Notes: generated by a model from the letters alone, not told the origin. A stretch of 64,000 nucleotides of DNA from Candidatus Saccharimonadales bacterium (GCA_049521895.1 JBEKOJ010000001.1:226717-290716), one strand, 5' to 3'; positions 822-62,522 are shown, counted from the stretch's first letter. A program made the numbers and translations.

Positions 822-2879
822 CTAGTTCAGATTGGTGATAGCGCGAAGAGCTGCAACTTTGGCATTGAGATGCGGGTATTTTTTAAGGTTTTCTTTGCGC
901 TCAATGAAATCTTGGGCAGCTCCACGGGCAGCGACGATCAATTTAGTGTCGGACAATTCTGCTACCCGCAAATCCAGTGCCCCGTGCTGCATGGTGCCAT
1001 AAATGGCTCCCGGGCCGCGTAGGCGCAGATCTAATTCGGCCAATCTAAAGCCGTCGGTGGTAGTCTCTAATGCCCTGAGGCGCTGGCTGGGCGCTTTACT
1101 ATCACTTAACATCAAAAAACAGTAGCTTTGATGGGCGCCGCGGCCAACGCGGCCGCGCAACTGGTGGATTTGCGCCAATCCAAAGCGCTCTGCGCCCTCT
1201 ACCAGCATAATTGTGGCATTCGGTATGTCCACGCCCACTTCTATAACTGTCGTGCTGACCAAAATGTCGTATTTTTTGGCCAGAAAATCACGCATCACTT
1301 TGTCTCTTTCGGCTGATTTCATTCTGCCGTGCAGCAGGGCTACTCGGCGATGTTTAAAATCGTGTTTGGCTAGTCTTTCGTAGACTTCTTCTACTGACAG
1401 GCCGCGGCTAAGTTCTGTATCTGTTATCAGCGGACAGACCACAAACATCTGGCGGCCGCTTGCCAGCTCTTTATCAACCTGCACATAGAGTTGTTTGCGT
1501 GAATTGGGAGAGCAAATTTTAGTTTTCACGACCCGCCTGCCAGGCGGCATTTCATCCAGCACCGAGATGTCCAGCTCGCCATAAAGCGTCAGCGCCAGGC
1601 TGCGCGGGATTGGCGTAGCTGTCATGTGCAGCACGTGCGGCATGTGGCCGGCCTTGGCTTGGAGTTTTTTGCGCTGTTCCACGCCAAAGCGATGCTGCTC
1701 GTCAATAATTATCAGCCCGAGCTTGTGCATATCAACTTTTTCGCTTATCAAGGCATGCGTACCGACAATTAATCTAATCTCGCCGGCGGTAATTTTTTCA
1801 TGCGCTAATTGCTTTGCCGCCGGCTTCAGTCCGCCAATTAGCAGGCTGACTTGGCCTCCGTAGCCAACATTACTTAACAAGTTAAGTAATGTATCGGCGT
1901 GTTGCCTGGCCAAGATTTCCGTAGGCGCCATAAATGCGGCTTGGAAACCTTGTTCCATGGCCATCAGCGCCGCCATGGCAGCCACCACGGTTTTACCAGA
2001 GCCGACATCGCCCTCAACCAGCCTATTCATTGGTTGGGTCTTGGCCGTATCCTGGTAAATCCGCCAAACGACCTTGCGCTGGGCATCGGTAAGCTTAAAA
2101 GGCAGTTTTGCGACAAAATCGCGAGCCAACTTCTCTCGGAACGGTATAGATAGACTCTTATCCTTAGTCAGTTCTTGTTTGTTGAGCAGCGCTGCCAATG
2201 TCAGCTGAAAAACTTCCTCAAACCCCAAGCGTTTTTTGGCTAGGCTGAGGGCTTTGGCGCCGCTAGGGAAATGCATTTCGCTTACTGCCCGGGCATAAAC
2301 GTTTAGCCCCTGCTCTTTTATCAGCCATGGCGGCAGATGCTCGGGCAGCTCGCTGACTTGCTGGATAGCTTCGCGCACCAGCTTGCGGATGGACGGTGAT
2401 TTGAGGCCGGCCGTTTCCCGGTATATCGGGATTATGCGGGCGGTATTGACTGGAAAGTCGCTAACCAGCTCCGCCGAGGGGTTCATGATAGCAAAGCGCC
2501 CGCGGCCGAGTTGGTATTCACCCGCTATAAAATAATCCCTACCGTGTTTAATAGCACCGGCGCGGTAGGGTTGGTTAAACCAGACTAGGCGCACACTGCC
2601 AGTCTTATCCGATGCAATCGCCTCGGTGATATGCATACCGCGGCGCACATAGCGCCCCCTTACCTGGCCGATTTTGGCCTGGATGGTTACAGCGCCCGGC
2701 TTTAGCTGGCCTACGGGTACGATATTGGAATAATCCTCGTAGCGGCGCGGGTAGTTATCTATTAAATCGCCGACGTTTTTTATGCCAAGGCTGGCCAGCT
2801 TTTTTGCTAGCTCATCCCCCACCCCTTTTAATTCAGTAATCGGTGATGATAATTCCATTACCACCAGTATAGATTGCAA
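822..2879 (-). CDS. recG: ATP-dependent DNA helicase RecG
   Basis: 685 aa with an N-terminal wedge/OB region, Walker A GDVGSGKT, DEQHRFG and the helicase C motif QLRGRVGRG. The start may be the internal MELSS (2858). Confidence 0.95.
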   Translation of the reverse strand: MQSILVVMELSSPITELKGVGDELAKKLASLGIKNVGDLIDNYPRRYEDYSNIVPVGQLKPGAVTIQAKIGQVRGRYVRRGMHITEAIASDKTGSVRLVWFNQPYRAGAIKHGRDYFIAGEYQLGRGRFAIMNPSAELVSDFPVNTARIIPIYRETAGLKSPSIRKLVREAIQQVSELPEHLPPWLIKEQGLNVYARAVSEMHFPSGAKALSLAKKRLGFEEVFQLTLAALLNKQELTKDKSLSIPFREKLARDFVAKLPFKLTDAQRKVVWRIYQDTAKTQPMNRLVEGDVGSGKTVVAAMAALMAMEQGFQAAFMAPTEILARQHADTLLNLLSNVGYGGQVSLLIGGLKPAAKQLAHEKITAGEIRLIVGTHALISEKVDMHKLGLIIIDEQHRFGVEQRKKLQAKAGHMPHVLHMTATPIPRSLALTLYGELDISVLDEMPPGRRVVKTKICSPNSRKQLYVQVDKELASGRQMFVVCPLITDTELSRGLSVEEVYERLAKHDFKHRRVALLHGRMKSAERDKVMRDFLAKKYDILVSTTVIEVGVDIPNATIMLVEGAERFGLAQIHQLRGRVGRGAHQSYCFLMLSDSKAPSQRLRALETTTDGFRLAELDLRLRGPGAIYGTMQHGALDLRVAELSDTKLIVAARGAAQDFIERKENLKKYPHLNAKVAALRAITNLN
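1867..1892. repeat. iterated palindrome copy (ACATTACTTAAC-AA-GTTAAGTAATGT)
   Basis: Perfect 12-bp arms inside recG. On the minus strand it reads TTA CTT AAC TTG TTA AGT = LLNLLS. Confidence 0.7.
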
Positions 2880-2909
2880 ATAAGATAAAGTTTGATTAAA
2901 TTATAGAAT

Positions 2910-3230
2910 ATGCGATTTGGACGTGAGCCAGCAGAACTACCGACCAGGGAAGAAGCTCTCGCTGCGGAGTCTCATTACTATGGCGACGTTAGAGAAGTCT
3001 ACATGCAACCCCCGGAAGGCAGCGAGGGAGCGGAAGCGCCACTACTTCTTGGCACAGAAGTGGCTATGGTGCAGATCGATACGGACCAAATTGTTTTATC
3101 TACCAGGATTGATAGAGCGTACTGCCGAACCGAAGGCGCTTATAGGCGTCAAATAAGAAAAATTATTAGCCAAGAAGCTCGAGCCATCCGTAGTTATAAT
3201 AGGACAATCCCGGGTTCTAGCGCTTTTTGA
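2910..3230 (+). CDS. hypothetical protein (weak call)
   Basis: This 106-aa ORF is the only long ORF in the 340-nt gap between recG and the methyltransferase gene. No motif was recognised. It overlaps the convergent gene by 14 nt. Confidence 0.3.
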   Translation: MRFGREPAELPTREEALAAESHYYGDVREVYMQPPEGSEGAEAPLLLGTEVAMVQIDTDQIVLSTRIDRAYCRTEGAYRRQIRKIISQEARAIRSYNRTIPGSSAF

Positions 3231-3999
3231 GGCGGAGCCAGATGCTGGGACCGAAATAAATTGGCGCCAGCAGCGGCTGCAGGCCCTTTTCCAAGCCTAA
3301 AAGCACGTTCTTGCCAAGAACTTTTTTGAGCCGGGGTGAGCGAAGGTTGGAACCGCTTAAAACAGTCTCTACTTCAAAACCAGCTTCGTGAAGTAATTTG
3401 ATAATTGTTTTGGGGTGATGGTTAACAAAAGCTACTTCGCCGGCTTTTTTGCTGGCTTCAGAGCTGATATCTACAGGAGTTTTAGGTACTCTTTTACCGT
3501 GTACGCCGTAGCGCAAACGGTTCAAAAAGTGCGCATCGTTAGCAAACTCCAAAATAAAAGTACCGCCAGGTTTTAGGACACGGGCAATTTCCTTAAACTC
3601 GGCCATCGGGTCCGGCAAATGGTGCAAAACCCGCACTACCAACACTAAATCAACGGATCTGGCCGGCATTTTAAGGTCGGCAGCCTGCAGATGCCTACGT
3701 TCTACTTCCGGCGAGTCTTTTAGATAGATTTTGGCGATGTCCAGCTGCTGCTGGCTGGGTTCAGCCAGCGTAACTTTATCAGCAAAGTTGGCCAGGAACT
3801 TGCTTAAGCGGCCATAACCCCCGCCGACGTCCACGGCGTTGTCAAAATGCCGTCCCTTGAGCAAGCGCTTGATAGCCATCTGCTCGGCGGCGTGCTCGTA
3901 TTCGCGACCGACCCAATAATTCTGGTAGTTGTACTTCGGATCGTCGTACTGGTCCGCCCTTTTGACCACTCTTTTCGCGGCCGGTTTCTTCGACTTCAT
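3217..3999 (-). CDS. class I SAM-dependent methyltransferase
   Basis: 260 aa with VDVGGGYGRLS (motif I) and LKPGGTFILEF. The start abuts the tyrS stop. Confidence 0.8.
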   Translation of the reverse strand: MKSKKPAAKRVVKRADQYDDPKYNYQNYWVGREYEHAAEQMAIKRLLKGRHFDNAVDVGGGYGRLSKFLANFADKVTLAEPSQQQLDIAKIYLKDSPEVERRHLQAADLKMPARSVDLVLVVRVLHHLPDPMAEFKEIARVLKPGGTFILEFANDAHFLNRLRYGVHGKRVPKTPVDISSEASKKAGEVAFVNHHPKTIIKLLHEAGFEVETVLSGSNLRSPRLKKVLGKNVLLGLEKGLQPLLAPIYFGPSIWLRLKKR

Positions 4000-5244
4000 C
4001 TATTCTAATTCTATCAAAGCGGAGTCCTTGAAAGCTTTACCACGGCGCAGCAGCAGCCGGCCATTTTGAAAATCGTTAGCTTCAAAATTCTCTCGGTTAA
4101 CAGATTGCCCATTGACATAAACCGCGCCGTTTTGCAGAAGCCGCCGGGCATCAGAATTTGAATCGGCTAACTTTGTTAATGCCAGTGCTTGGATGATAGA
4201 GCCTCCGGCTTGGGTTGACACGGCGGGGATTTCATTTCTTAGCTCTTCGAGGTCTGAATCAGTCGCTTCTCTAATAGATACTTGACCTGTTAAGTATTCC
4301 GAGGCACCCGTCGCTGCTTTGCTTGGTTCCTCTCCGTGTGCCAACTCGGTCACTTTTTCGGCCAACAGCTTTTGCGCAACTCTTTTGGCAGTATCAGCTC
4401 TGTGCTGTACCATCGCACGGTCTATTTTTTCTCTAGGCAGCAGAGTGAAGACTTTTAGATAGTCTTCGACATCAGCATCATCAGTATTGATCCAAAATTG
4501 ATACAATTGCGTGGGTGTAGTTTTGACCGGATCAAGCCAGACAGTTTCTTCCTCACTCTTGCCAAATTTGCGGCCGGTAGTTTTATTAATAACTAGCGGC
4601 ATGGAGAATGCGTGAGCCTCCTGGTTCTCTTTTTTGCGGATTAGGCTGACGCCCGAGAGCATATTGCCCCACTGGTCTGAGCCGCCAATCTGCATAACTA
4701 CACCGTGGTTTTTGAAAAGGTGCCAAAAGTCGTAACCCTGTATCAGGGAGTAGCTAAACTCGGCGTAGCTAATTCCGGAGCCTTCGGCGCCCATACGCTC
4801 GGTTACAAAATCGCGCTGCATCAGTTCGGTCATCGAGAAATGTTTACCGACATCGCGCAAAAAATCGATATATTTGAGCCCGGAAAGCCAATCATAATTA
4901 TCTGCAGCAGTAAAGTGCTCACCCGCAAACAAGTTGGCCACCTGCTTCTTTATAATTTCAATGTTGGCTTTAATCTCTTCGCGCGGTTTTAGCTCGCGCT
5001 CTTCGACTTTACCGCCGGGATCGCCGACTAAACTGGTGCCGCCGCCGGCCAGCAAAACGGCCTTCCAGCCGCCGTCAATCAAGCGCCTGGCCAGTAGCAA
5101 AATGGCTAGGTTGCCAACGGTTAAACTGTTGGACGAGGCGTCAATCCCTAAATAGAAAGTCTTGGGGCTGTCCAGCCAAGCCAACTCAGCAAAAGTTTTA
5201 TCTTTGATTAGCCCTCTCCAGGCTAGATCTTCGCTTAGGCTCAT
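4000..5244 (-). CDS. tyrS: tyrosine--tRNA ligase
   Basis: 414 aa with a class I fold, a KFGKS (KMSKS-type) loop, a C-terminal S4-like domain, and GGSDQWGN. Confidence 0.95.
   Translation of the reverse strand: MSLSEDLAWRGLIKDKTFAELAWLDSPKTFYLGIDASSNSLTVGNLAILLLARRLIDGGWKAVLLAGGGTSLVGDPGGKVEERELKPREEIKANIEIIKKQVANLFAGEHFTAADNYDWLSGLKYIDFLRDVGKHFSMTELMQRDFVTERMGAEGSGISYAEFSYSLIQGYDFWHLFKNHGVVMQIGGSDQWGNMLSGVSLIRKKENQEAHAFSMPLVINKTTGRKFGKSEEETVWLDPVKTTPTQLYQFWINTDDADVEDYLKVFTLLPREKIDRAMVQHRADTAKRVAQKLLAEKVTELAHGEEPSKAATGASEYLTGQVSIREATDSDLEELRNEIPAVSTQAGGSIIQALALTKLADSNSDARRLLQNGAVYVNGQSVNRENFEANDFQNGRLLLRRGKAFKDSALIELE
4279..4296. repeat. iterated palindrome copy (TACTTGAC-CT-GTTAAGTA)
   Basis: One G.T position. 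The copy lies inside tyrS in a different reading frame from the other coding copies (GAA TAC TTA ACA GGT CAA GTA). Confidence 0.6.
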
Positions 5245-20534: not shown

Positions 20535-20882
20535 TTACTCCAGCTCAATAATTTCTTCAATGATGTAGTCCAGGCCGTTGGTGGTGACGCTGGCAGCCAG
20601 CAGCCGGTAGTCGCCGCCCCAGCCATTTTGCTGGTTCCAGATACTAGCCGCGAAGTGGAGTTGGCGAAGTTTTTGCGCCGTGATGTAGTCCAGGCCTACA
20701 CCTTGGCTGTCGCCACTGCGGTATTTTACTTCCACAAAGTAAATAATCCCGTTCTTCCTAGCAACAACATCAATCTCGCAAACCTTAGTTTTCCAGTTTT
20801 GGGTGATAATTTCGTAGCCTTCACACGCCAGTCGTTCGGCGACAGCGGTCTCGGCCTGCTTGCCGCGAATGGTTGTTTTCAA
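20535..20882 (-). CDS. yraN: YraN family (UPF0102) endonuclease-like protein
   Basis: 115 aa with the EIDVVA...FVEVK pattern of UPF0102. It overlaps the rnhB stop. Confidence 0.8.
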   Translation of the reverse strand: MKTTIRGKQAETAVAERLACEGYEIITQNWKTKVCEIDVVARKNGIIYFVEVKYRSGDSQGVGLDYITAQKLRQLHFAASIWNQQNGWGGDYRLLAASVTTNGLDYIIEEIIELE

Positions 20883-21448
20883 TTCTGAGCCTCGGCTAAA
20901 ATTTGTAGTGGCTTAAAACTCATGCGGTGGACGCCCTCTAAAATACCGTGCTGCTCAATCGCCAGCTTGTGGGCGGCCGTACCATAGCCAACATGATTCT
21001 CGAAACCATATGCCGGATAGCGCTTTTTGAGCTTGCCCATATAGCTATCCCGGCGAACTTTAGCAAAAATTCCGGCGGCCGACACAAGCGGGATTAGCAC
21101 GTCGGCGTCAACCAGACACTTAACATTACTAAAGTGCGCCGGTACGTAATTTACCTTGCCATCCATAATAATTTCTTCGTCAATTTGGGCTTTGAGCATC
21201 CTTAGCGCTCTGGCTATGCCTAATCGTAGCGCGATTGCTAAGCCCCGGCTATCTATTTCCGCGACGTTTACCCAGCCCTCGCCAAATTCACAACAACTAC
21301 TTAACGTGTTAAGTATTTGCTGTCTTTGCAACTTGGTCATAAGTTTGGAATCTTTGAGCCCAAGCGGCAAGTCAGCTTTGGCCCGCACTGCTACTACCAG
21401 CAGTGGGCCAGCCCAACAACCCCGCCCCACTTCATCTACCCCTATCAT
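20879..21448 (-). CDS. rnhB: ribonuclease HII
   Basis: 189 aa starting MIGVDEVGRGCWAGPL, with DSK and a later D residue, matching the RNase HII pattern. Confidence 0.9.
   Translation of the reverse strand: MIGVDEVGRGCWAGPLLVVAVRAKADLPLGLKDSKLMTKLQRQQILNTLSSCCEFGEGWVNVAEIDSRGLAIALRLGIARALRMLKAQIDEEIIMDGKVNYVPAHFSNVKCLVDADVLIPLVSAAGIFAKVRRDSYMGKLKKRYPAYGFENHVGYGTAAHKLAIEQHGILEGVHRMSFKPLQILAEAQN
21298..21315. repeat. iterated palindrome copy (TACTTAAC-GT-GTTAAGTA)
   Basis: Perfect 8-bp arms inside rnhB, reading CTT AAC ACG TTA AGT = LNTLS. Confidence 0.7.
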
Positions 21449-21971: not shown

Positions 21972-22559
21972 TTATTCTTTGTTTTGCTCAGCGGCTGGGC
22001 TTTTGGCCTCGGCGCGTTCGACGGGCTGTTTTTCTAGTTTTTCGGCTTCGGATTTTGGCGCTTCAGTAGTGGCGGCCTTGGCTTCGGCCTCCTCGGCGGC
22101 TTTTTCGGCCTTGGCGGCCTCCGGGTCATAAGATTCTACCTGCTCTTCGCGGATCTTGGCTTCCTCGGCCTCAGCAGTTTCGTCACGGATGGCATTAACC
22201 GCCTCCCTGTCAAAATCGGTGCCGCTCAGACGGGTACTTTTGCCGGTTAGTCCGCGCATATAAGTCAGGTAGTTGCGGCGGACCTTGCTGCGCTTGGTCA
22301 CCTCTACTTTAAGAATACTGGGCGAGTGGACTAAAAACGTTTTTTCTACGCCCACGCCGCTGGCAATGCGCCTGACCGTAATGCTACTAGTTAGGCTGTT
22401 CTTGCGGCTGACACGGATTACCAAGCCCTCAAAAATCTGCACGCGCTCTTTGTTACCTTCGCGGACTTTTTGGTGCACGCGGGCATTGTCGCCGGGCCGC
22501 ACATCAACTACGGCACTTTTCTTCTGCTGAGCCTCAATTTTCTGAATAACACTCTCCAT
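21972..22559 (-). CDS. rplS: 50S ribosomal protein L19 with an acidic/Ala-Lys-rich C-terminal tail
   Basis: The N-terminal 115 aa match the L19 pattern (RPGD.V.V...EG.KERVQ.FEG.VI). About 80 aa of low-complexity tail follows. Confidence 0.95.
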   Translation of the reverse strand: MESVIQKIEAQQKKSAVVDVRPGDNARVHQKVREGNKERVQIFEGLVIRVSRKNSLTSSITVRRIASGVGVEKTFLVHSPSILKVEVTKRSKVRRNYLTYMRGLTGKSTRLSGTDFDREAVNAIRDETAEAEEAKIREEQVESYDPEAAKAEKAAEEAEAKAATTEAPKSEAEKLEKQPVERAEAKSPAAEQNKE

Positions 22560-24985: not shown

Positions 24986-25975
24986 ATGACCGCTAAAATA
25001 AAAATTCGTGCGCGTTCAGTTCATAGCAGCCACCGACATCGCCCAAAAGGTGTTAGTAGACGTGCTTTCGAAAAAGTCTACTGGCCATATATACCGGTAG
25101 TGTTGATCATCGGATTATTGTTATCTTTCAGCGGTCAGAGCGGTGCCTTACAAGCGGCGTTTGCCCGCCATAATGGCCGAGTTCTGGCCTACGCCACCAG
25201 CATGAGTATAAACGGCCTGTTGGCCGACACCAATATAGCACGGGCAGATAATGGCGTAGGTAGTTTAAACCTCAATGGCAAATTAGATGCGGCCGCGCAG
25301 GCCCAAGCCAATGACATGGTGGCGCGTAATTATTGGAGTCACAATACGCCGGAGGGTGGCCCGCCATGGACATGGGTGACTGACCAAGGCTATGTCTACC
25401 TGGCGCTTGGCCAAAACTTAGCTGCTGGCTTTAATGATGAACAATCTACTATAAATGGCTGGCTTGCCAGCTCGCTGCACCGCGAAAACATGCTCAACCC
25501 GATATATAGCGATGTAGGTTTTGGTTTCGCCAATAATCCTAACTACACCTCCGCGGGTGGCGGTCCGATGACCATCGTAGTAACTTTTTATGGCGAGCCA
25601 ACCTCAGTAGCAACCGCAGTGGCCGCTTCAACTCCTTCAAATTCTTCTACGAGCAGTCCAAGTACAACGTCGTCTAAGGCAGCAGCATCCGCGACAGTTC
25701 AAACACCGGCATCAGGCATGGCGTTAGCTTATCGAACCTCCAGAGCCAACCTGGCTTTTGCCAAATTGCCATTTGCCAGTTTTGCTACCGGTCTAGCAAC
25801 GTTTGGTGTAATCGCAGCCGTTGGATTCTGGCTGAGTCGCCACCTGCTTAAGCTGCGGCGAGCCCTCACCCACAGTGAAGCTTACATTTTTAACCACCCG
25901 TTGATGGATGTTGGGTTGCTGATAATTGCAGCCTTGTCTTATTTACTGAGCCAGACCGCCGGCTTTATCCAGTAA
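24986..25975 (+). CDS. CAP/SCP (PR-1-like) domain protein, membrane-anchored
   Basis: 329 aa with YWSHNTPEG and HRENML typical of CAP domains. It also has an N-terminal TM segment, a Ser/Thr-rich linker and two C-terminal TM segments. Confidence 0.75.
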   Translation: MTAKIKIRARSVHSSHRHRPKGVSRRAFEKVYWPYIPVVLIIGLLLSFSGQSGALQAAFARHNGRVLAYATSMSINGLLADTNIARADNGVGSLNLNGKLDAAAQAQANDMVARNYWSHNTPEGGPPWTWVTDQGYVYLALGQNLAAGFNDEQSTINGWLASSLHRENMLNPIYSDVGFGFANNPNYTSAGGGPMTIVVTFYGEPTSVATAVAASTPSNSSTSSPSTTSSKAAASATVQTPASGMALAYRTSRANLAFAKLPFASFATGLATFGVIAAVGFWLSRHLLKLRRALTHSEAYIFNHPLMDVGLLIIAALSYLLSQTAGFIQ

Positions 25976-26096
25976 AATGAACAAATGCGACAAATGAACA
26001 ATGTTCAATGAATGCTTGAAATGCTATTAATGCATTAAGTTATTGCTGTATCGACTATTCATTCGTCCATTAGTCCATTCGTCCATTGAACATCAT
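25976..26096. repeat. octamer-type tandem repeats forming an imperfect inverted repeat
   Basis: (AAATGAAC/AAATGCGAC)n on the left faces (GTCCATTN)n on the right, with ATGTTCAATG / CATTGAACAT pairing. The mismatches become G.U pairs on the minus strand. Confidence 0.4.
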
Positions 26097-26099
26097 AAA

Positions 26100-26117
26100 T
26101 ACTTAACTTGCTAAGTA
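26100..26117. repeat. iterated palindrome copy (TACTTAAC-TT-GCTAAGTA)
   Basis: One mismatch. Flanking AAA/TTT extends the arms. The copy directly abuts the dnaE stop codon and may double as a weak terminator. Confidence 0.6.
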
Positions 26118-26120: not shown

Positions 26121-29100
26121 TTACCTCACTACTACATTAGTAGAACCGAAGATGTCCGCCAAAGCTCTAAGGCTAGACTCGTTAATACTGATAGTCTGCG
26201 GCAATTTTATGACTTGCTTAGCGGACGGTGCTCCAGTCACCAGAACAACCTCAGTCTCCCCTCTATGATCGTCGAGTTTTTCTTTTAGCGTTAGTAACAA
26301 TGATTGGTTAGCGCTGTTTTCTAACCTTATGTAAAGTCGCTGTTTGGATATAGGCGGCTCGTATTGGCTTGCTTGGGTTTCTTCTGGCGGGGGTATATTC
26401 TTGCTGCTCGGCTGAAACTCCGAGGCTTCTTTGATGGATACTAGTTGGATTTCATCGGCGAGTAATTTTAGCTCACTATCGTCGCGCGACCCGCGCCCAC
26501 CGCCCAGCTTGCCTTTGACTATGACTACTTGGTCGCGCTGGAGCGGCTCAGTCAAAGTTTGATAAGCCCTAGGAAAAACCACCACTTCGATTTCGCCAGA
26601 TTTGTCGGCAATACTGATAAATGCCATTTTAGCGCCGTTTCTGGTAACAATGTCGCGCAAGCTGACAATTGATCCGCCAAGTGCCAGGCTACGGCCGTCC
26701 ATCTCCGGTGTAATAAACGATATAGGCGCAGTTCTTTCCGCCAAAAGGGCCTCGTAAGCTTCAAGCGGGTGATGGCTGAGATATAGCCCAAGTAGCTCTC
26801 TCTCCCAATTCAGCTGTTCTGCCTGCGGGTATTCAGCTGCGCTCTTATCAAGCACCAGTTTGACAGCCAGATTCTGGTTATCGCTATCTTCGCTAAATAA
26901 ATCTACCTGGCCGGAGCTGGCGTCTTTTTGCAAACGCGACGCAAAAGCTTGCATATTTTCTATGTTATCGAACATCTGCCCGCGTTCGCCAAAGCCGTCA
27001 AGCGCACCGGCTTTAATCAAGCTTTCGAGGGCTTTACGGTTAACGATATGGGCGCTGACTGTGCGTAAGAAGTCTTCTAGTTTTTCAAACTTCCCCCCAA
27101 GTACTTCACGGGCACGTAAAATTTCTTCTACAGCTCCATGCCCGACATTTTTTACAGCATCTAGACCAAAACGGATCTGATTTTTCCCTGGAACAATACC
27201 AAATTCATGGAAAGATTGATTAACATCCGGCGACAAGACTTCAATGCCCATATTCTTGCATTCGGTAATTTCAATAGCCAAGCGATCAGTATTATCGTAA
27301 TCGCTAGTCATTAGCGCCGCCATGTAAGCTGCCGGATAATTGGCCTTGAGATAAGCTGTCTGATAAGCAATCAAGCCATAGCAGGCTGAGTGCACCTTGT
27401 TAAAACAGTAGGCGGCGAATTCTTCCAATTGCGTCCAGAACTTCTCCATGGCTATGCGGTCAGCTCCGGAATGTTTAATAGCTCCATCTATAAATTCTTT
27501 TTTCATCTTGGCTAGAACCTCAGGGATTTTCTTGGCTATACCTTTGCGCAAGGTATCGGCCTGGCCGCCGGAGAAACCACAGAGGTCTTTGCTGATTTGC
27601 ATAACCTGCTCTTGGTAAACAATTACACCATAAGTATTCTCCAAGGCGTTTTTCATGACAGGATGCAGATACTCGATTTTTCTAAGGCCGTGCTTGCGAG
27701 CTATAAAATCGTCGATCCATTGTATTGGCCCTGGGCGGTATAGCGCGACCATGGCTACGATGTCTTCGAAAACCGTCGGTTTGAGTTGCTTGAGGTAGCG
27801 GCGCATGCCAGCCGATTCCAGCTGGAAAACACCGGTGGTTTCACCTTTTTGCAACAGTTCAAAGGTCTTTCTATCGTCCAGTGCGATCTCAGCGATGTCG
27901 ATATCCTTTTTATAGACCTTTTTAATAATCCGCAGGGCATTTTTAATAGTTGTAAGGTTGGATAGCCCTAAAAAGTCCATTTTAAGCAACCCCAATTCTT
28001 CTATCGGCCCCATGGAATACTGGGTTGCGATAACACCTTTCTGGGCCATTTCAAGCGGTACAAATTTGACAATATCGTCTGGTGCAATAACTACACCAGC
28101 AGCATGCACACCATGGCTGCGGATTGTTCCTTCCAACTTTGTGGCCAAGTCAAATACACGGGCCGATTGCTGGTTAGTTTCGTTCTCGACTTTGAGTTCC
28201 GGAACCTGTTTTAAGTGCACCTTTAGCGGCGTATGGCGGCCCTGCACTGGCGGCGGGATCATTTTGGCCAAGCGATCAGCTTCTGCATAAGGCACTTGTA
28301 ATACGCGCGCCACATCGCGCACCGAGTTACGCGCCGCCATGCGCCCAAAGGTCACAATGTTGGCAACCCTGTCGCGACCATATTTTTCAACGCAATAATT
28401 TATGACTTCGTCACGTCTGGAGTCCTGGATATCTATGTCCATGTCCGGCATACTGATGCGGTCAGGGTTAAGGAATCGCTCAAACAACAAGTCGTAGCTT
28501 AGCGGATCGATCTCAGTAATACGCAAGCTGTAGGCCATAATGGAACTGGCCGCGCTACCCCGGCCGGGGCCAAACACGATTCCCCTGTCTTTACCCCAAT
28601 TGATAAAATCGGCTACGATCAGAAAATAGCCATTAAATTCCATCTTGTCCACAATACCCAGCTCATAGTTGGCGCGGGTAATCACATCACCACGGAGAGT
28701 TTTCTTGGCTTGGTTAATGGTTAGCTGATCTGCTTGGGCGCGACTCCTACCACCGTAGCGCCAGGCTAAACCTTGCCAGACTTTTTTTTCTAACAGGCTC
28801 TTCTCGGTCTCGTTTTTGGGTGTGGGAAATTTAGGGATTAAGATCTTACCTAACTCAATTTCAACTTTGCAACGCTTGGCTATAGTCTTGGTATTGGTAA
28901 TCAACTCCGGATGGTCCGGCCCCCAGCGTTTAACTATATCTTTGGGGTCCGCTACGTAGAGTTCGAAGTCTTTGAGGCTGAAGCGATTCTCGTCAGATAA
29001 GAAGGCGCCTGTTTGTACGCATAACAAAATCTCATGGGCTTCTTGATCCTCGTGCTTTAAATAGTGGGCATCGCATGTAACCACCGCCGGTATATTAAGT

Positions 29101-29732
29101 TCTTTGGCAAGTTTCAGTAGCTGGTTATTCACTTTATTTTGTTCATCCCAAGCAGTCGGGTGTGCTGGATGTCCATGATCCTGGAGCTCTATATAATAAC
29201 GGTCAGCGAAGATTTTCTTGTACCACTCAGCAATTTTTTTGGCTTGCTCGTATTGGTCCTGCCTTAGTGCGTCACTGACTTCGCCACCGATACAACCGCT
29301 CAAGATGATAATTCCTTCGTTATATTTTTCTATTAATTGATGGTCAATTCTAGGCCGGTAATAAAATCCCTCTAAGTTGGCGATCGTGTTGAGCCGCATC
29401 AGGTTTTGATAGCCCTTAGCGTTCATGGCCAGCATCGTCAAGTGGTAATACTGGCGGTCGTGGGTCGGATCTCTATCCGTATACTTTCTGGGGGCAATAT
29501 AAGCCTCCATGCCGATAATTGGTTTTATGCCCGCATCTTTGGCTTCTTCATAAAACTCGATGGCTCCGCTCATAGTGCCATGATCAGTTATGGCCACGCT
29601 ATCCATGTGCATTTCCTTGATACGTTCAATTAGCGCCGGTACCTTAGTCAAGCCATCCAAGAGCGAATACTGAGTATGGTTGTGCAGATGCACAAAGTCA
29701 GACGGTTTAAGTTGTGCCCCCAGCTTTGCCAT
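26121..29732 (-). CDS. dnaE: DNA polymerase III alpha subunit DnaE
   Basis: 1203 aa with a PHP domain (FVHLHNHTQYSLLDG), the palm/fingers motif GRGSAASS, an HhH element and an OB fold. Confidence 0.95.
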   Translation of the reverse strand: MAKLGAQLKPSDFVHLHNHTQYSLLDGLTKVPALIERIKEMHMDSVAITDHGTMSGAIEFYEEAKDAGIKPIIGMEAYIAPRKYTDRDPTHDRQYYHLTMLAMNAKGYQNLMRLNTIANLEGFYYRPRIDHQLIEKYNEGIIILSGCIGGEVSDALRQDQYEQAKKIAEWYKKIFADRYYIELQDHGHPAHPTAWDEQNKVNNQLLKLAKELNIPAVVTCDAHYLKHEDQEAHEILLCVQTGAFLSDENRFSLKDFELYVADPKDIVKRWGPDHPELITNTKTIAKRCKVEIELGKILIPKFPTPKNETEKSLLEKKVWQGLAWRYGGRSRAQADQLTINQAKKTLRGDVITRANYELGIVDKMEFNGYFLIVADFINWGKDRGIVFGPGRGSAASSIMAYSLRITEIDPLSYDLLFERFLNPDRISMPDMDIDIQDSRRDEVINYCVEKYGRDRVANIVTFGRMAARNSVRDVARVLQVPYAEADRLAKMIPPPVQGRHTPLKVHLKQVPELKVENETNQQSARVFDLATKLEGTIRSHGVHAAGVVIAPDDIVKFVPLEMAQKGVIATQYSMGPIEELGLLKMDFLGLSNLTTIKNALRIIKKVYKKDIDIAEIALDDRKTFELLQKGETTGVFQLESAGMRRYLKQLKPTVFEDIVAMVALYRPGPIQWIDDFIARKHGLRKIEYLHPVMKNALENTYGVIVYQEQVMQISKDLCGFSGGQADTLRKGIAKKIPEVLAKMKKEFIDGAIKHSGADRIAMEKFWTQLEEFAAYCFNKVHSACYGLIAYQTAYLKANYPAAYMAALMTSDYDNTDRLAIEITECKNMGIEVLSPDVNQSFHEFGIVPGKNQIRFGLDAVKNVGHGAVEEILRAREVLGGKFEKLEDFLRTVSAHIVNRKALESLIKAGALDGFGERGQMFDNIENMQAFASRLQKDASSGQVDLFSEDSDNQNLAVKLVLDKSAAEYPQAEQLNWERELLGLYLSHHPLEAYEALLAERTAPISFITPEMDGRSLALGGSIVSLRDIVTRNGAKMAFISIADKSGEIEVVVFPRAYQTLTEPLQRDQVVIVKGKLGGGRGSRDDSELKLLADEIQLVSIKEASEFQPSSKNIPPPEETQASQYEPPISKQRLYIRLENSANQSLLLTLKEKLDDHRGETEVVLVTGAPSAKQVIKLPQTISINESSLRALADIFGSTNVVVR

Positions 29733-35209: not shown

Positions 35210-37168
35210 TTACAATTTGGCTCTGACTTCACCGATTAGGTCACGTAACTCGGCGGCTTTTTCGAATTCCAGGTTGGCGGCCGCCAGATCCATCTGGGAG
35301 GTCAGGTCGCGGATCAGGAAGTTATATTCATCTTTGGGTATTTTACGCAGATCCAACTTTGGCTTCGCTGCCTTTTCGGCTCTTGGCAGCAGTTCATCCA
35401 CGGCACGCACGATACTGCGGGGTGTAATACCATGGCCTTTATTATATTTCCCTTGGACCGCCCGGCGGCGGTTAGTCACATCAATGGTGCGTTGCATGCT
35501 GCCAGTCACCGTATCGGCGTACATTATCACCCGTCCCTCTTCGTGGCGGGCTGCCCGGCCGACGGTCTGGACCAGTGCTTGCTCGCTGCGTAAAAATCCT
35601 TCCTTGTCAGCATCTAAGATTGCTACTAGGCTGACTTCTGGCAGGTCCAGCCCTTCCCTAAGTAAGTTGATACCGACCAGTACGTCATAAACTCCCAGCC
35701 TAAGGTCGCGTAAAATATCGGTACGGTCTAGGGTATCGATCTCGCTGTGTAGGTATGCAACTTTTACGTCCAGTTCCTTCAGGTATTCGGCTAAGTCTTC
35801 CGACATGCGCTTGGTTAATGTTGTCACTAAAACACGTTGAGCTTTGCCCACTGTCGCGCGGATCTCGGCAATCAGGTCGTCAATCTGCCCATCAATCGGC
35901 CGGACTTCAATTTTAGGATCCAGTAGGCCGGTTGGCCGGATGATTTGCTGGACCGGTTCCGGGCTGCGCGATAGTTCGTACTCGGCAGGTGTGGCGCTGA
36001 CGTACACAACTTGGTTCATATGGCGCTCAAATTCAGAAAAAGTCAGCGGCCGGTTGTCCAGTGCCGAAGGCAAGCGGAAGCCATATTCCACCAGCACCTC
36101 TTTGCGCGAACGGTCGCCGTGGTACATACCTCGGACTTGCGGAATGGTCATGTGCGATTCGTCCACGAACATCAGGTAGTCATCCGGGAAGTAATCTAAC
36201 AGAGTAGCGGGTTGCTCGCCAGCTTCGCGATTGGTCAAATAACGGCTGTAGTTTTCGATACCTTTCACAAAGCCGGTCTGCTCCAGCATCTCCAGGTCAA
36301 ATTTGACACGCTGCTCCAAGCGCTGGGCTTCCAGCAGTTTACCTTGTTTTTTAAACCAAGCTCCTCGCTTATCGGCTTCCTGGCGGATTTTAACCAGCGC
36401 TTTTTGGAGTTTTTCTTGCGGTGTAACGTAGTGGCTCCCTGGGAAAATACTTAACTCGTTAAGTGTTTTTTCTATCTCGCCGGTCAACGGATTAATTTGG
36501 TTCATGCGTTCCACTTCATCGCCAAAAAATTCAATCCGATAGGCATTTTCTTCACCTGCTGGGAAAACGTCCACGACGTCTCCCCTGACCCGGAAATTGC
36601 CACGCTCAAAGGCCATATCATTCCGGCGGTACTGGATATCTGTTAGCTGCCTAAGTAGTTTGTCGCGCAGTCGCCGCTCGCCGACTTTAAGCCTAACAGC
36701 CATATTGCCGTAATCTTCCACCGAGCCAATGCCGTAGATACAAGATACAGAAGCCACAATAATCACGTCGTTGCGCGACAGCAGTGCACTAGTTGCGGCG
36801 TGACGCAAACGGTCAATTTCTTCATTGATATCACTGTCTTTCTCGATATAAGTGTCAGAACGGGGCATATAAGCTTCCGGCTGGTAATAATCAAAGTAGC
36901 TAACAAAGTAGTGCACAGCATTATCCGGGAAAAACAGCCGGAATTCATTATAAAGCTGCGCGGCCAGAGTTTTGTTGTGGCTCAGTACCAGCGTCGGTTT
37001 CTGGGTATTTTGGATCAGGTTAGCCATAGTAAAAGTCTTGCCGCTGCCGGTCACACCCAGCAGCACCTGATTCTTGGCACCGGCTTTTAGTCCCTCGGTC
37101 AATTTAGCAATTGCCGCCGGTTGGTCGCCCGTCGGCTTATAGTCGCTCCTCAGTTTGAACTTACTCAC
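35210..37168 (-). CDS. uvrB: excinuclease ABC subunit B
   Basis: 652 aa with Walker A GVTGSGKT, helicase motifs including DESH, and a C-terminal UVR domain ([15 protein letters not shown]). Confidence 0.95.
36448..36465. repeat. iterated palindrome copy (TACTTAAC-TC-GTTAAGTG)
   Basis: The copy lies inside uvrB and reads CTT AAC GAG TTA AGT = LNELS. Flanking AAAA/TTTT extends the arms to 12 bp with one T.G position. Confidence 0.65.
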
Positions 37169-43616: not shown

Positions 43617-43772
43617 CCCAGCAGTGAGCTTGCGAGATTATTCGATTCCCTTGGAGCCGTCAGCTCGTCAGCATCTCTTACGAAGACTGTAAGTCGGGAA
43701 CAGTTATGTTAGCGAGGCCTCGAATAATTAGCTCATGCGAGCGATGAGCTGACTCGAAAGTCTACTGCTGGG
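43617..43772 (+). mobile_element. ORF-less CCCAGCAG-terminus element (156 nt, expanded hairpin)
   Basis: Sequence: CCCAGCAGTGAGCTTGCGAG...CTCGAAAGTCTACTGCTGGG. The termini co-vary (T-A changed to C-G). The hairpins are ATTATTCGA-[69 nt]-TCGAATAAT and AGCTCAT-GCGAGCG-ATGAGCT. TTT flanks both sides, and the right terminus overlaps the rpe stop codon. Confidence 0.7.
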
Positions 43773-44406
43773 TTTCGTCGGCGATGCGTTGCAGAGCCGC
43801 GAAAGCCCGCGCCGGGTCTTCAGCTCTTTGGATATAACCGCCAACGTTTAGTACGTCCACGCCACCATTTATTAGCTCAGCAACATTTTGGTCATTAATA
43901 CCACCGTCCCAGCCCACTTCCAAATCAGGTTTATACTGTTTCAAAATACTTAACTTGTTAAGTAATTTAAGGTCGGCGTGGCTGCCGGTTTGGTAACCTA
44001 AATTACCGGAGAATATCAACACGTGGTCAATACTACTTAGCGCCGGCAGGATTGTTTCAGCCGGTGTCCGTTGCAACAGTGCCACACCAACCCCTACTTC
44101 ATGACGGTGGCAAAAGTTGGCAATATCCTCAAAACCGCCTTCGGCTTCGGCGTGAACTATTATCAGATTTGGCCGGTGCTCCATGATAGTTTGAACAGCT
44201 GGCATTGGATGGCGGTACATGAGATGAAAATCGGCTTTAACCCCCACCGGCCACCAAGCTTGCTCGGGCCTAACGGTACGGCTGGGTGCAAACTGCCCGT
44301 CTGTTAAATCAATCTGGATACGCTGGGCAAAATGGGCTATCTTGGCTATTTGTTGTCTGTATTCTTCTTCGCTGCCAGCTAAAATTGCCGGGCAAATAGT
44401 CGGCAT
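43762..44406 (-). CDS. rpe: ribulose-phosphate 3-epimerase
   Basis: 214 aa with a TIM-barrel pattern (ICPAILA, DLTDG, HLM, VHAE, GWDGG). The last codons, ACC CAG CAG TAG, are contributed by the inserted element terminus. Confidence 0.85.
   Translation of the reverse strand: MPTICPAILAGSEEEYRQQIAKIAHFAQRIQIDLTDGQFAPSRTVRPEQAWWPVGVKADFHLMYRHPMPAVQTIMEHRPNLIIVHAEAEGGFEDIANFCHRHEVGVGVALLQRTPAETILPALSSIDHVLIFSGNLGYQTGSHADLKLLNKLSILKQYKPDLEVGWDGGINDQNVAELINGGVDVLNVGGYIQRAEDPARAFAALQRIADETQQ
43947..43964. repeat. iterated palindrome copy (TACTTAAC-TT-GTTAAGTA)
   Basis: Perfect 8-bp arms inside rpe, reading CTT AAC AAG TTA AGT = LNKLS. Confidence 0.7.
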
Positions 44407-58339: not shown

Positions 58340-58345
58340 ATTGAT

Positions 58346-58660: not shown

Positions 58661-58661
58661 G
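58349..58661 (+). mobile_element. ORF-bearing CCTAGTAG-terminus element (GIY-YIG nuclease cargo)
   Basis: CCTAGTAGTGAGCTTTC...GAAAGTCTACTACTAGG encloses a single ORF. A TATG direct duplication flanks it (58345-58348 and 58662-58665). Confidence 0.75.
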
Positions 58662-58662
58662 T

Positions 58663-59079: not shown

Positions 59080-59140
59080 GTTCTCCTCGCCGTTCTTAGC
59101 TAAATCTCAGCTAATTCTGTTGTTATGATTTAGACAAATT

Positions 59141-60637
59141 ATGAATTTTGCGGCGAAACTTTATCAGCGACCACTAGATCTTGTCGATAGCCTGCTTGAT
59201 GGCATAACTTCTTACCGTTTATTACTCTATTTCCTCTTGACGGTTCTAGGCTGGGCTACGCTGGCCAGTTTCAGGGGGAATGTTCCCTTTAGCTGGCACG
59301 CCATCGTTTTTTCTGCACTGGCACTGGTGATAGTCTGCCGGCTAAGCGGGGAGTTTTTCGCCCGCGTTTTAAACATCGCCCGTAATTTTGAATCTGATTA
59401 CATAACGGCGTTGATTTTGGCCCTAATTATGAGTCCAGCGACCACCTTGAAGGGTTTCGCGATTCTGGTAGGAGCGGGTTTTGCTGCCATTGCTTCTAAG
59501 TATTTATTGACCATCGGCCGGCGTCATATCCTTAATCCGGCCGCAGCTGGCGCCGTTGTCGCCGGAGTATTTTTTGGGCAGTATGCCAGCTGGTGGGTCG
59601 GCACGGCAGTACTGGCACCGCTAGTACTGGTTGGCGGCTTATTAATAATGCGTAAAATGAAACGGTTCTACATGGTCGCAGGTTTTGCGTTAGTTTACGG
59701 CGTGTTTCTGCATCACCAATTTGATGGCGCTCCGGCCCTGCATACCATATGGCTGGCGGCGTCCGGTACTGCCGTGATGTTTTTTGCTTTCATCATGCTG
59801 ACCGAGCCTTTAACGTTGCCGGACTTGGCTATGCGCTATATGCCGTACGCCGTTTTGGTAGCCGTCCTATATAGCGTTAACCGTTTGCGGCTGGCCCCAG
59901 AAGAAGCTCTGCTGATCGGCAACGTTTTTGCCTACGCACTGGAACGCGGCAAGCGACTGGAGTTGAGCTTAAATAGCGTGCGCAAAGAGGCCGAGGGGAT
60001 ATATAGTTTCGTCTTTACTTACCACGGCGCTTTTAATTTCAAGCCCGGGCAGTACATGGAATGGACGCTGCCGCTTCGCCATAGTGACAGCCGCGGTAAC
60101 CGGCGTTATTTAACCCTTTCCTCAGCACCGACCGAAAACCAGCTAATGTTTACGGTTCGTTTGCCGCGCCGGGCAAGCCATTTCAAAAAAGCTTTAGCGG
60201 CTTCTAAGCCGGGCGGCAAGATATTAGCCTCGCACCTCGCCGGCTCGTTCGTTCTGCCCGGCGACGATAGCAAAAAACTGGCATTTATCGCCGGCGGCAT
60301 TGGTGTTACACCTTTCCGTTCGATGATTAAATATGTGGTAGACAGCCGCCAGCAGCGGCCAATTAGCCTACTGTATGCCGCTAACCACGCCAACGAATTC
60401 GCCTTCACCCAGTTGCTTAAGCAAGCCGAGCCTTTTGGTATTACTACCAATTATCTTGACACTTCCAAGCGCAGCCTCGACCAACAGGCTATCGTCGAAA
60501 ATTTGCCGGACTGGCGAGAGCGGCATTTTTATTTGTCTGGACCTTACGGATTTGTAAAATCAGTGCGGGAATCACTTTTGGATATGGGTGTGAGCCTGAG
60601 AAATATTAAGTCCGATTATTTTCCCGGCTACGGCTAA
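59141..60637 (+). CDS. polytopic membrane domain fused to an FNR-like FAD/NAD(P)-binding oxidoreductase
   Basis: 498 aa with about 7 TM segments in the N-terminal half. The C-terminal half has RRYLTLSS (RxYS FAD motif) and GGIGVTPFRSM (NAD motif). Confidence 0.75.
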   Translation: MNFAAKLYQRPLDLVDSLLDGITSYRLLLYFLLTVLGWATLASFRGNVPFSWHAIVFSALALVIVCRLSGEFFARVLNIARNFESDYITALILALIMSPATTLKGFAILVGAGFAAIASKYLLTIGRRHILNPAAAGAVVAGVFFGQYASWWVGTAVLAPLVLVGGLLIMRKMKRFYMVAGFALVYGVFLHHQFDGAPALHTIWLAASGTAVMFFAFIMLTEPLTLPDLAMRYMPYAVLVAVLYSVNRLRLAPEEALLIGNVFAYALERGKRLELSLNSVRKEAEGIYSFVFTYHGAFNFKPGQYMEWTLPLRHSDSRGNRRYLTLSSAPTENQLMFTVRLPRRASHFKKALAASKPGGKILASHLAGSFVLPGDDSKKLAFIAGGIGVTPFRSMIKYVVDSRQQRPISLLYAANHANEFAFTQLLKQAEPFGITTNYLDTSKRSLDQQAIVENLPDWRERHFYLSGPYGFVKSVRESLLDMGVSLRNIKSDYFPGYG

Positions 60638-60787
60638 GGATCATTTTTCAGCTATGAAAACGGGCACGAATTTTGCTACGAGCGATTTTAAATAATCGCG
60701 AGCGTTCGTGCCCAAAATGAGCGGAACTCAGAGGCCCGAGGAACGAATTCCAAGGGCCTCCAAGTCCCAAGAGACGAAGTCTCAGTG

Positions 60788-61606
60788 CTACGACTCCCTG
60801 ACCACCGGCGCAGCCCAGTTGCTTCTGACGCGGTCTGCCCAGCCGGCGTCCAGGCCGACCTCGCGGCTGACCCTGTCCCCGTAGAGGTACAGAACGCTCG
60901 TCCAGGGCTGGTCGTCGGGCACCGTGGCCTCGAAACCGGCCATGTCGGCATACGGCAGGTTCGTTCCGTCTTGCTGCCTGAGCAGCTCGTCGTGAACGGC
61001 GTAGGCCGCCAGGACTTCAGCGGCCGCCAGGGTCTCGCCCGTGCGGGCGGCCTGCTCACGAACCTGAAGCACCGAACGGCCGTCTTCTGGCTCCCAGTGA
61101 GCCACCAGGTTGATCCGGATCCGATGGATGCCGGGCTCGTACCAGCGGGCAGTCGGCGTCAGGCGCAGATGGTTGGAGTCGATTTTCAAACCGTCGTAAC
61201 ACCGGGCGTTGGGCTGATTGGCCTTGATGGCCCGCCAGTACGCTTCGACGTTGCCTTCCGACGACCCGAACTCGATGTAGAAGATCTCAAGGTCGTTGAC
61301 GCTCTGGACGTGGTCGCTGGAGGTGTCGACGGTATCGAACCAACCGACCGACTTGATCTGGCCGTCCAAGACACTGAGGTCGAGAACTTGCCAGAGGTTC
61401 AGCTGATCTTCGAGGCTCAGAAGATGCAGCCTGTAGCGGTCGAAGCGGATCTGCTGCAGCTGCTCTTTCAGTGCAGCAACCATAGGATCGACCAACTCCG
61501 GCTGCTTGATAAGCGCCCGCGCCATTTCGGCGTCGAGACCGCTCTGAGAAAGGATGCGATAAAGTTCCACATCCTCTCCCTTGGTGATGTCGTAAAGGCT
61601 TGCCAT
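60788..61606 (-). CDS. GC-rich ORFan protein (island 3)
   Basis: The start was trimmed to MASLYDITKG, with GGGAGG 9 nt upstream. 272 aa, high GC3, with spurious overlapping ORFs on both strands. No motif was recognised. Confidence 0.6.
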   Translation of the reverse strand: MASLYDITKGEDVELYRILSQSGLDAEMARALIKQPELVDPMVAALKEQLQQIRFDRYRLHLLSLEDQLNLWQVLDLSVLDGQIKSVGWFDTVDTSSDHVQSVNDLEIFYIEFGSSEGNVEAYWRAIKANQPNARCYDGLKIDSNHLRLTPTARWYEPGIHRIRINLVAHWEPEDGRSVLQVREQAARTGETLAAAEVLAAYAVHDELLRQQDGTNLPYADMAGFEATVPDDQPWTSVLYLYGDRVSREVGLDAGWADRVRSNWAAPVVRES

Positions 61607-61826
61607 TTCTGGCTGACCTCCCTTTGGTACGCCGCCAGGCTGACTCATTATCCGCGCATCGCGAGCGTAGAAAGCTTACCCGTTTGAGAACGGCATATTG
61701 GGGCTAAGTTTTGGCCCCAAAATGCCGCCCTCAACTTAAAGGTATCGGGGGTTGTAGCTTAACCCGCCAAATTTTCTTTGAAATTTTAGGCGGGTAAATC
61801 TGTTAAGGTACAATAGGCAAATTATA

Positions 61827-62522
61827 CTATTTAAGCTTATTCTTGTCAACTATTATTACCTCGTAGCCGGGTTGTTTTTTAATGAATTCAACGCAGGCAA
61901 GACCCATAACAAAACAGGCTGTCGCTAAGACGTCGGCTTTGATGATGTCCGGCCCGGTGACTGTCAGGCTCAGTAGCTCATTGGCTGGGCGGCCGGTTTT
62001 AGGATTAATGATGTGCTTACCGCGCTCATAAGTACCGCTGGTGGCAACCGCCCCGTTCGAAACACTTAGCGTGTTAAGTATTTTTGATTTATTGCGCGGA
62101 TCCTGAATACCAATATTCCAAGTTTTGGCACTGTTGGAGCGCGCCAGAATATCGCCGCCGGCGCCGATACAATAAGTTTTATAGCCGGCCTTTTCTATCG
62201 CCTTCCCCGCCTCCTTAATTCCGTAACCTTTGACATAGCCGGTAGGGTTAAATTTGCCTTCAAAATGCGCCGAAAAGTAGCCATCCGTGTATTTTTCCGC
62301 CTGTTTGCAGGCCCGTATGACTCGTTTCATCTCCCTGCTTAAGTCTGATTCTTTGATTTCGCCGCGCCTGAATTTACTGAGTTCACTGGCTGGCTTATAG
62401 GGGCTAAAGCGATTATCAATAGCCTCCAAACACCTAAAAGCAGCGATAAACGGCGCCTCAGTGCGGGCAGCTGGAATATCAATGCTGATGGGCAGACCCA
62501 TAATGAATTCGACGCGTCTCAT
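61827..62522 (-). CDS. apbE: FAD:protein FMN transferase (ApbE family), short form
   Basis: 231 aa with MGLPISIDI, IGAGGD, ATSGTYERG and ADVLATACFVMG. Confidence 0.85.
   Translation of the reverse strand: MRRVEFIMGLPISIDIPAARTEAPFIAAFRCLEAIDNRFSPYKPASELSKFRRGEIKESDLSREMKRVIRACKQAEKYTDGYFSAHFEGKFNPTGYVKGYGIKEAGKAIEKAGYKTYCIGAGGDILARSNSAKTWNIGIQDPRNKSKILNTLSVSNGAVATSGTYERGKHIINPKTGRPANELLSLTVTGPDIIKADVLATACFVMGLACVEFIKKQPGYEVIIVDKNKLK
62063..62080. repeat. iterated palindrome copy (CACTTAGC-GT-GTTAAGTA)
   Basis: Two changes relative to the consensus. The copy lies inside apbE and reads CTT AAC ACG CTA AGT = LNTLS. Confidence 0.55.

Follow-up and report, generated by a model that had tools for sequence, protein, structure and literature searches.

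A palindrome conserved as DNA across Saccharibacteria is a candidate recognition site of a MarR-family regulator

A palindromic DNA word, TACTTAAC-NN-GTTAAGTA, recurs in unrelated genes of a 64,000-nucleotide stretch of the genome of a Candidatus Saccharimonadales bacterium (GCA_049521895.1 JBEKOJ010000001.1:226717-290716; the whole of this stretch is called the window). We propose that the palindrome is probably the recognition site of a homodimeric MarR-family regulator conserved in Saccharibacteria, and that the copies in the window are orphan operators that would bind the same protein. What the analysis shows is an association of the site with a promoter, an invariant recognition helix in the encoded regulator, selection acting at the level of DNA, and gain and loss of the site among relatives. 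Saccharibacteria are ultrasmall episymbiotic bacteria; gene regulation in the Patescibacteria (candidate phyla radiation, CPR) is almost unexplored, and these cells have very few transcription factors. A literature search found no description of the motif or of a corresponding regulon, nor of Saccharibacteria in connection with an uptake sequence or with MarR. The regulator and its 24-bp site, both conserved in many Saccharibacteria, would make a concrete and testable pair.

Frequency and form of the palindrome

The window was searched with the pattern TACTTAACNNGTTAAGTA, i.e., TACTTAAC-NN-GTTAAGTA, in which 16 bases are specified. All seven copies that a preliminary description of the window had picked out by eye were located in this way (three exact, three with one mismatch, and one with two mismatches), whereas dinucleotide-preserving shuffles gave an expectation of 0.00 exact copies and 0.01 copies at up to 2 mismatches, in agreement with the earlier estimate that such a 16-nt word should occur far less than once in 64 kb. 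Raising the tolerance to three mismatches added no copy in the window, and the copies are therefore sharply defined and do not form a decaying family. The half-site GTTAAGTA occurs 10 times in the window (1.7 expected), each time within one of the seven palindromes, and TTAA is present twice per site.

The full site spans about 24 bp, AAATACTTAAC-WW-GTTAAGTATTT, with the centres of the half-sites one helical turn apart. A logo of 97 exact sites, among the matches listed in the species-wide scan described below, read A-A-(A/T)-TACTTAAC-W-W-GTTAAGTA-(T/A)-T-T, with about 24 bp conserved, and, taken with this logo, those of 72 marR-linked and 122 orphan (not marR-linked) sites gave AAATACTT(A/G)AC-WW-GT(T/C)AAGTATTT. 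The A-rich left and T-rich right flanks noted earlier for the window copies are thus real and general across loci. An inverted repeat of roughly 16 to 24 bp, half-sites spaced by a helical turn, and AT-rich flanks are features expected of a MarR operator, and all three were found.

Position of the site in the marR promoter of relatives

Among 47 intergenic sites, 5 were found immediately ahead of a MarR-family gene, and one intergenic location alone recurred, 16 to 45 nt upstream of a gene for a MarR-family protein (by Pfam) of about 140 to 155 aa; the marR gene was also the only recurrent promoter-proximal position among about 230 sites. The protein matched PF12802 (MarR_2) and PF01047 (MarR) beyond the curated cut-offs, and its nearest solved structures were MepR and other MarR repressors (profile E = 1e-17 to 1e-18), so that the putative cognate protein belongs by both measures to the MarR-family winged-helix proteins; that it forms a dimer is predicted.

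The association was retested without reference to the motif, MarR homologs being found by protein search and their DNA then fetched. In five such look-ups, the site was present upstream of marR in L122, L124, L126, and L130 (L-numbers designate loci) and had a degenerate core in L125. A ksgA terminator, considered in place of a marR operator, was excluded, as ksgA is separated from marR by other genes in L126 and L130, where the site remains upstream of marR. Of 80 loci retrieved when metagenomes were scanned with the MarR alignment, 79 had sufficient upstream DNA, and a copy at up to 2 mismatches lay 48 to 79 nt upstream of the MarR match in 78 of these; we estimate the chance expectation at about 4e-5 per locus.

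The marR-linked form is TACTTGAC-NN-GT(T/C)AAGTA, its left half being almost always TACTTGAC. The TTGAC of this site constitutes the -35 box, with TAnnnT following 17 to 18 nt on (63 occurrences, 72 distinct sites) and the ATG of marR a few to about 30 nt beyond the -10 box. The site in these relatives thus lies within the promoter and overlaps its core elements and, judged by this layout, is the operator of a MarR autorepressor of the classical type. The proteins of these loci share the recognition helix QTEANVSRQL without variation, at a mutual identity of only 24 to 50%; in the wider family this helix reads QT/SE/Q-A/P-S/N-V/I-SRQ. In several loci the next gene after marR encodes an MFS transporter.

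The closest known counterpart is MepR of Staphylococcus aureus with its operators at mepR and mepA, which requires about 22 bp or more, extends its wings into AT-rich flanks, and has its sites over promoter elements (PMC3936728). As in that system, the Saccharibacteria regulator is a winged-helix protein of about 140 to 155 aa and a homodimer (predicted here), the inverted repeat is of the kind that needs about 22 to 27 bp with AT-rich flanks for the wings (PMC3936728), the site lies over core promoter elements of the regulator's own gene, and a transporter gene often follows the regulator gene. The half-sites differ (CTTAAC-N2-GTTAAG here, GTTAG-N4-CTAAC for MepR), and, unlike MepR sites, the palindrome is present in dozens of perfect extra copies that lie in housekeeping genes or at gene ends, are conserved between orthologs, and have no promoter features. 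Multiplied intragenic copies have, to our knowledge, not been described for MarR-family operators. The operator itself is ordinary; what is not is the conservation of intragenic copies and their expansion in particular lineages.

Copies in the window and selection on DNA

Six of the seven window copies are intragenic, one lies between convergent genes, and none lies at a marR gene or in the promoter position of a MarR operator. Because of these coding and convergent positions, and because the orphan class has no -10 box at operator spacing, we regard the window copies as operator-like sites and not as operators. All six intragenic copies are in genes on the minus strand, and the gene names given earlier (recG, tyrS, rnhB, dnaE, uvrB, rpe, and apbE) were agreed by Pfam. 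The recG copy (1867..1892, with an exact core at 1871-1888; open reading frame [ORF] 822-2879) has the perfect 12-bp arms previously ascribed to it and encodes L-L-N-L-L-S-N. Exact copies are also found in rnhB (21298..21315; gene 20879-21448) and rpe (43947..43964; gene 43762-44406). One mismatch is present in tyrS (4279..4296; gene 4000-5244), where the plus strand reads TACTTGAC and the encoded peptide is Y-L-T-G-Q-V-S, and in uvrB (36448..36465; gene 35210-37168); two are present in apbE (62063..62080; gene 61827-62522). The intergenic copy (26100..26117, one mismatch) ends 3 nt short of the dnaE stop codon, in the 145-nt spacer between a CAP-domain gene (24986-25975, plus strand) and dnaE (26121-29732, minus strand); the same spacer measures only about 6 nt and has no site in L008 and L043. 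To the left of this copy, inside the spacer, the 12-mer CATTCGTCCATT occurs twice, 4 nt apart (26060-26087).

Purifying selection maintains the palindrome as DNA. In pairs of sequences that had not been selected for the site (window tyrS versus L226 and L081, and the glutamate dehydrogenase site of L223 versus L226), 16 of 16 bases were identical, compared with 67 to 76% in the rest of the gene and about 50% at synonymous third positions. For tyrS in particular, L081 and L226 matched the window at 16/16 specified bases with the remainder of the gene 67 to 68% identical, L227 carried a copy with two mismatches to the consensus, and L225 had none. The rnhB genes of L008 and L043 have the palindrome at the same aligned position (16/16 identical), and that of L054 has no palindrome and a different peptide there. 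In recG, a one-mismatch copy was found at the same position in L227 (79% amino acid identity), and neither the motif nor related residues were found in L108 (53%). The uvrB gene of L083 (76% amino acid identity) has neither site nor peptide and carries a copy at its stop codon instead. Exact copies are present at the same aligned position in the apbE genes of L014 and L099, and gatB has the site in L032 and L041, whereas the gatB gene of the window has no site and unrelated residues.

These alignments bear out two earlier suggestions. What is conserved is the nucleotide sequence rather than a peptide, given the identity of 16/16 bases versus about 50% at synonymous positions and the absence of the peptide from orthologs that lack the motif. 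The copies arose by substitution and not by insertion, since sites were gained in orthologous alignments by replacement at unchanged length. Selection on the peptide was ruled out as an explanation, as motif-less orthologs encode unrelated residues and the reading frame is forced by stop codons. On either strand of a perfect palindrome, two of the three frames are closed by a TAA, and therefore xTA CTT AAC NNG TTA AGT Axx is the sole open frame, encoding (I/L)-L-N-x-L-S-(I/N); all coding copies with an intact core are in this one phase. The tyrS copy can be read in another frame because its single mismatch, also present in orthologs, turns TAA into CAA on the coding strand. The identical codons reported for five genes, with tyrS in a different frame, are thus real and carry no information about a preferred frame, and the likeness to DNA uptake sequences that had been drawn from such a preference falls away with it.

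Overall, about two thirds of sites are coding and about one third intergenic. Many intergenic sites lie 2 to 7 nt past a stop codon or between convergent genes (19 sites overall in the latter class, including 26100-26117), and the motif's own TAA sometimes serves as the stop codon of a gene. The AAA/TTT flank preference is common to orphan and marR-linked sites, and for this reason we argue that both have the same binder. One of the few orphans at a promoter-like position is a one-mismatch copy in the right flank of the window (L224, 17502-17519), 48 nt upstream of a DNA maintenance gene of the MgsA/RarA AAA+ type.

Distribution and density in Saccharibacteria

A scan for the exact palindrome in one genome per prokaryotic species gave at least 116 loci. 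Among the matches listed, about 85 were labelled Saccharibacteria, Saccharimonadales, or Saccharimonadia, about 10 had vaguer or doubtful labels, and 21 were isolated matches in unrelated taxa, of the kind expected by chance in 596 Gb. The motif is a lineage-wide trait of Saccharibacteria. Its presence in many metagenome-assembled genomes (MAGs) of different Saccharibacteria species rules out local duplication as its origin and dispels the earlier concern that it might be confined to the window. Proteins of the window also match metagenomic contigs, up to 769 kb in length, from peat and soil samples. Several exact sites were found in MAGs not labelled as Saccharibacteria (L028, L036, L047, and L089 [DATIIZ, Candidatus Babeliales] and L027 [Sulfotelmatobacter]); since the ORF of L089 clusters with a Saccharibacteria family resembling valyl-tRNA synthetase (ValRS), mis-binned or mislabelled contigs are suggested.

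Among the matches listed, ORFs that bear the site group by family, and in each family the aligned position of the site is shared. The site is most often carried by RecX (14 loci; 15 ORF entries with a site, of which 14 have it at the common position), followed by a family of about 850 aa that is ValRS-like by sequence pattern (6 loci) and FolD (5 loci); further families are RNase HII, ApbE, GatB, a TsaB-like protein, MurI, pseudouridine synthase, and TyrS. The recX gene of L068 carries two exact copies (1523-1540 and 1616-1633) 93 bp apart, in successive RecX three-helix repeats. Overlapping one-and-a-half copies, TACTTAACTTGTTACTTAACAAGTTAAGTA, are present in an unclassified MAG (L060, 6347-6376, and L115, 2262-2291) and look like a partial tandem duplication of the site.

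The window and its two flanks (L223 on the left, L224 on the right) cover 84 kb of the window organism and contain nine copies (seven in the 64 kb of the window), or about 1 per 9 kb. The density in most relatives is several times lower, about 1 per 40 to 60 kb; 644 kb around marR genes of other Saccharibacteria, not selected for the motif, held 16 copies, about 11 of them unique. Close relatives vary: L227 (RecG 79% identical) has four copies in 22 kb, including those at the recG and tyrS positions, L226 (RecG 87%) has two in 21 kb, and L225 (RecG 84%) has none in 22 kb. Two kinds of enrichment were considered and found no support. Clustering in the window region in the manner of parS was not supported, as synteny with the window was seen for only about 11 of 95 motif-selected loci, which is roughly the fraction of the genome that the window makes up; and phage contigs were not enriched, the 10 exact hits in IMG/VR being judged about chance level (no expectation was computed).

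Proposed action of the regulator

On the reading that we favour, a MarR dimer on the operator would cover the -35 box and exclude RNA polymerase; it is because a dimer bound there would block the polymerase that we propose autorepression, and a small-molecule ligand would lift the repression, as is the precedent in the MarR family. Orphan sites would have been created in unrelated genes by point substitution at positions that tolerate change, or would lie right at gene ends, would then have been held by purifying selection on DNA, and most likely bind the same MarR protein. With about 1 site per 9 kb, this protein would be a genome-wide DNA-binding factor in the window organism. Candidate roles for the orphans are a roadblock to transcription, a block to read-through between convergent genes, nucleoid architecture, and titration of the repressor. 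If the orphans are occupied, they would point to a layer of global control or chromosome organisation in ultrasmall episymbionts and would offer a clean natural case of binding-site selection shaping proteins. The pattern of an operator multiplied within essential genes, with selection on DNA overriding the amino acid sequence, is unusual. The motif may also serve as a lineage marker, and it calls for caution in codon- or peptide-based inference at such positions.

More specific, and in our judgement possible though somewhat doubtful, is that an ordinary MarR efflux repressor was co-opted genome-wide in one branch, its operator being seeded at about 100 positions of a genome of about 0.8 Mb. 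Dimers in housekeeping genes and between convergent genes might then act as roadblocks, insulators, or nucleoid anchors, in parallel with the evolution of Noc from ParB. In that case the MarR ligand could tune transcription or chromosome state genome-wide in an episymbiont poor in regulators.

Several points weigh against recognition by a MarR protein throughout. Binding of the MarR protein to the site, occupancy of the orphans, and an effect of that occupancy are what we infer, and the binding claim rests on the logic of MarR-family autoregulation. About 100 conserved high-affinity sites in housekeeping genes would be atypical for a MarR efflux repressor. The 122 orphan sites showed no enrichment of TAnnnT at operator spacing, which excludes them as promoters of the marR type, and those within genes have no consistent position there. 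Syntenic regions of about 20 kb in close relatives hold 0, 2, 3, and 4 sites, and such fast lineage-specific change in number is easier to obtain by molecular drive than by selection on each site. In the recG gene of L226 (87% amino acid identity), LLNLLS is kept and the codons differ (TACTCAATTTGCTTAGCA). Orthologs that keep LNxLS with varied codons had been named beforehand as a sign of selection on the protein, and this single instance is outweighed by the other sites; it is either a decayed site with a fixed peptide or a peptide older than the site. Across 120 RecG homologs (76 to 100% identity), LLNLLS and LYKLLD are patchily distributed and switch among those of 76 to 87% identity.

Finally, no marR ortholog was found in the 84 kb of the window organism, and its presence there is therefore deduced from relatives, in which the surroundings of marR show no synteny with the window. 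The regulator is encoded by at least one site-rich relative, since a single 340,642-bp contig includes both L227, with orphans at the recG and tyrS positions, and the marR locus L158 with its operator. About 1.5 kb past the left end of the window, L223 encodes a 101-aa winged-helix protein (11992-12297) with weak MarR_2 and IclR hits; its gene is GC-richer than its surroundings by eye, has no upstream palindrome, and does not match the MarR profile.

Other readings of the palindrome

The preliminary description had offered three readings: a DNA uptake signal, the site of a dimeric nucleoid or partition-type protein, and a methylation- or restriction-related site or RNA hairpin. That of a dimeric protein fits best of the three, given the marR promoter and the 78/79 loci; the protein types named with it (ParB, MatP, and Noc) do not fit. 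We consider it unlikely that a dimeric protein other than MarR (nucleoid-associated, of the occlusion or partition type, or a winged-helix paralog) binds the orphans and also regulates the marR promoter. The sites recognised by Noc (NBS), SlmA (SBS), and MatP (matS) are palindromes of 14 to 16 bp or more, number tens per genome, are often intragenic, and are selected for binding. Orphan copies of the palindrome behave likewise, being intragenic and conserved at the DNA level, and in number and spread they come nearer to those sets than to a MarR regulon; it is also by deduction that MarR is assigned to the site. The palindrome has, in contrast, no sequence similarity to those sites, the candidate here is of the MarR and not the ParB, TetR, or MatP family, and a link to division or segregation is not known for it. 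ParB-parS and Noc-NBS in particular were rejected, as the palindrome bears no resemblance to TGTTNCACGTGAAACA or ATTTCCCGGGAAAT and no ParB-type gene is among the annotated genes of the 84 kb, a search that likewise yielded no MarR-like gene. A second protein would be less parsimonious, as no promoter-proximal position other than that at marR recurs; the site and the MarR recognition helix are frozen together, and the size, symmetry, and AT-rich flanks of the site fit MarR-family footprints.

Uptake is, in our view, a rather improbable explanation. A type IV pilus or competence receptor would prefer the palindrome, and copies would build up by uptake bias and recombination. Saccharibacteria are naturally competent through comEC (PMC10633639), and the type IV pilus components previously noted in the window are represented by a PilB-type ATPase. 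The palindrome resembles the DNA uptake sequence (DUS) of Neisseria and the uptake signal sequence (USS) of Pasteurellaceae in being lineage-wide and common to related species, in having accumulated by substitution at tolerant coding positions where amino acids are imposed, in its gene-end copies, and in its occurrence in a naturally competent phylum. Pairs of DUS or USS also occupy terminator-like positions, and the 19 sites between convergent genes are in keeping with this, as are the fast shifts in copy number between close relatives and the patchy RecG peptide, which recombination would give. Known uptake signals, however, occur about once per kb, in hundreds to thousands of copies per genome. 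The density of the palindrome is 10- to 50-fold too low (about 1 per 9 kb here and 1 per 40 to 60 kb for the majority of relatives), no copy was present in 22 kb of one close relative, and a 24-bp palindrome, of doubled length, is no short asymmetric word. Uptake would leave the tie to a regulator promoter, the fixed position at the -35 box in 78/79 marR loci, and the invariant recognition helix without a reason, and the literature search gave no link of Saccharibacteria to uptake sequences. Of this reading, the substitution-type spread in coding DNA stands and the density, palindromy, and promoter tie speak against it.

A transcript hairpin acting as terminator, processing site, or stability element is very improbable. 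The perfect recG and rnhB copies do fold at -12 to -15 kcal/mol (z-scores of -4 to -5), and runs of A and T at the flanks, together with locations directly behind stop codons, resemble terminators. Over all copies, folding energies range from -3.8 to -15 kcal/mol, those in tyrS and uvrB do not fold better than shuffled sequences, and no mismatch is compensated, so that sequence rather than pairing is conserved and the copies do not behave as a structured RNA or intrinsic terminator. The stem is AU-rich, most copies are mid-gene, and at marR promoters the same site lies upstream of the transcription start. A search of Rfam with both strands of the 64 kb gave no family at the gathering score and detected no tRNA or known RNA gene. 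We give as little credence to a role in methylation or restriction, or to a functionless neutral by-product: palindromic symmetry, with TTAA twice in the site, speaks for the former, whereas 16 to 24 specified bases greatly exceed the length of Type II or Type I targets, genomes usually avoid restriction targets rather than being enriched in them, phage contigs show no enrichment, and neutrality is contradicted by the 16/16 conservation versus about 50% synonymous identity.

Three other known elements were compared. Intragenic binding sites conserved across species are reported for sigma-54 in Escherichia coli (PMC4591121). Sigma-54 belongs to a different protein class, and its sites resemble promoters; the orphans here are without a -10 partner. 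REP- or MITE-type elements, which are extragenic and add length, were rejected since two thirds of sites are coding and no length change was seen. HIP1 of cyanobacteria (8-bp GCGATCGC, at least 1 per kb) was rejected as well, its sequence, length, density, and phylum all being different.

Additional observations in the window organism

On the same contig, about 5 kb past the right end of the window, L224 carries a gene (14874-15821) for a 315-aa reverse transcriptase with an RVT_1 domain, and several genes around it have no Pfam hits; a retron, a group II intron, and a defence island are conceivable settings for it. Within the window (1-64000), the gene at 21972-22559 encodes a ribosomal protein L19 of 195 aa, which is unusually long.

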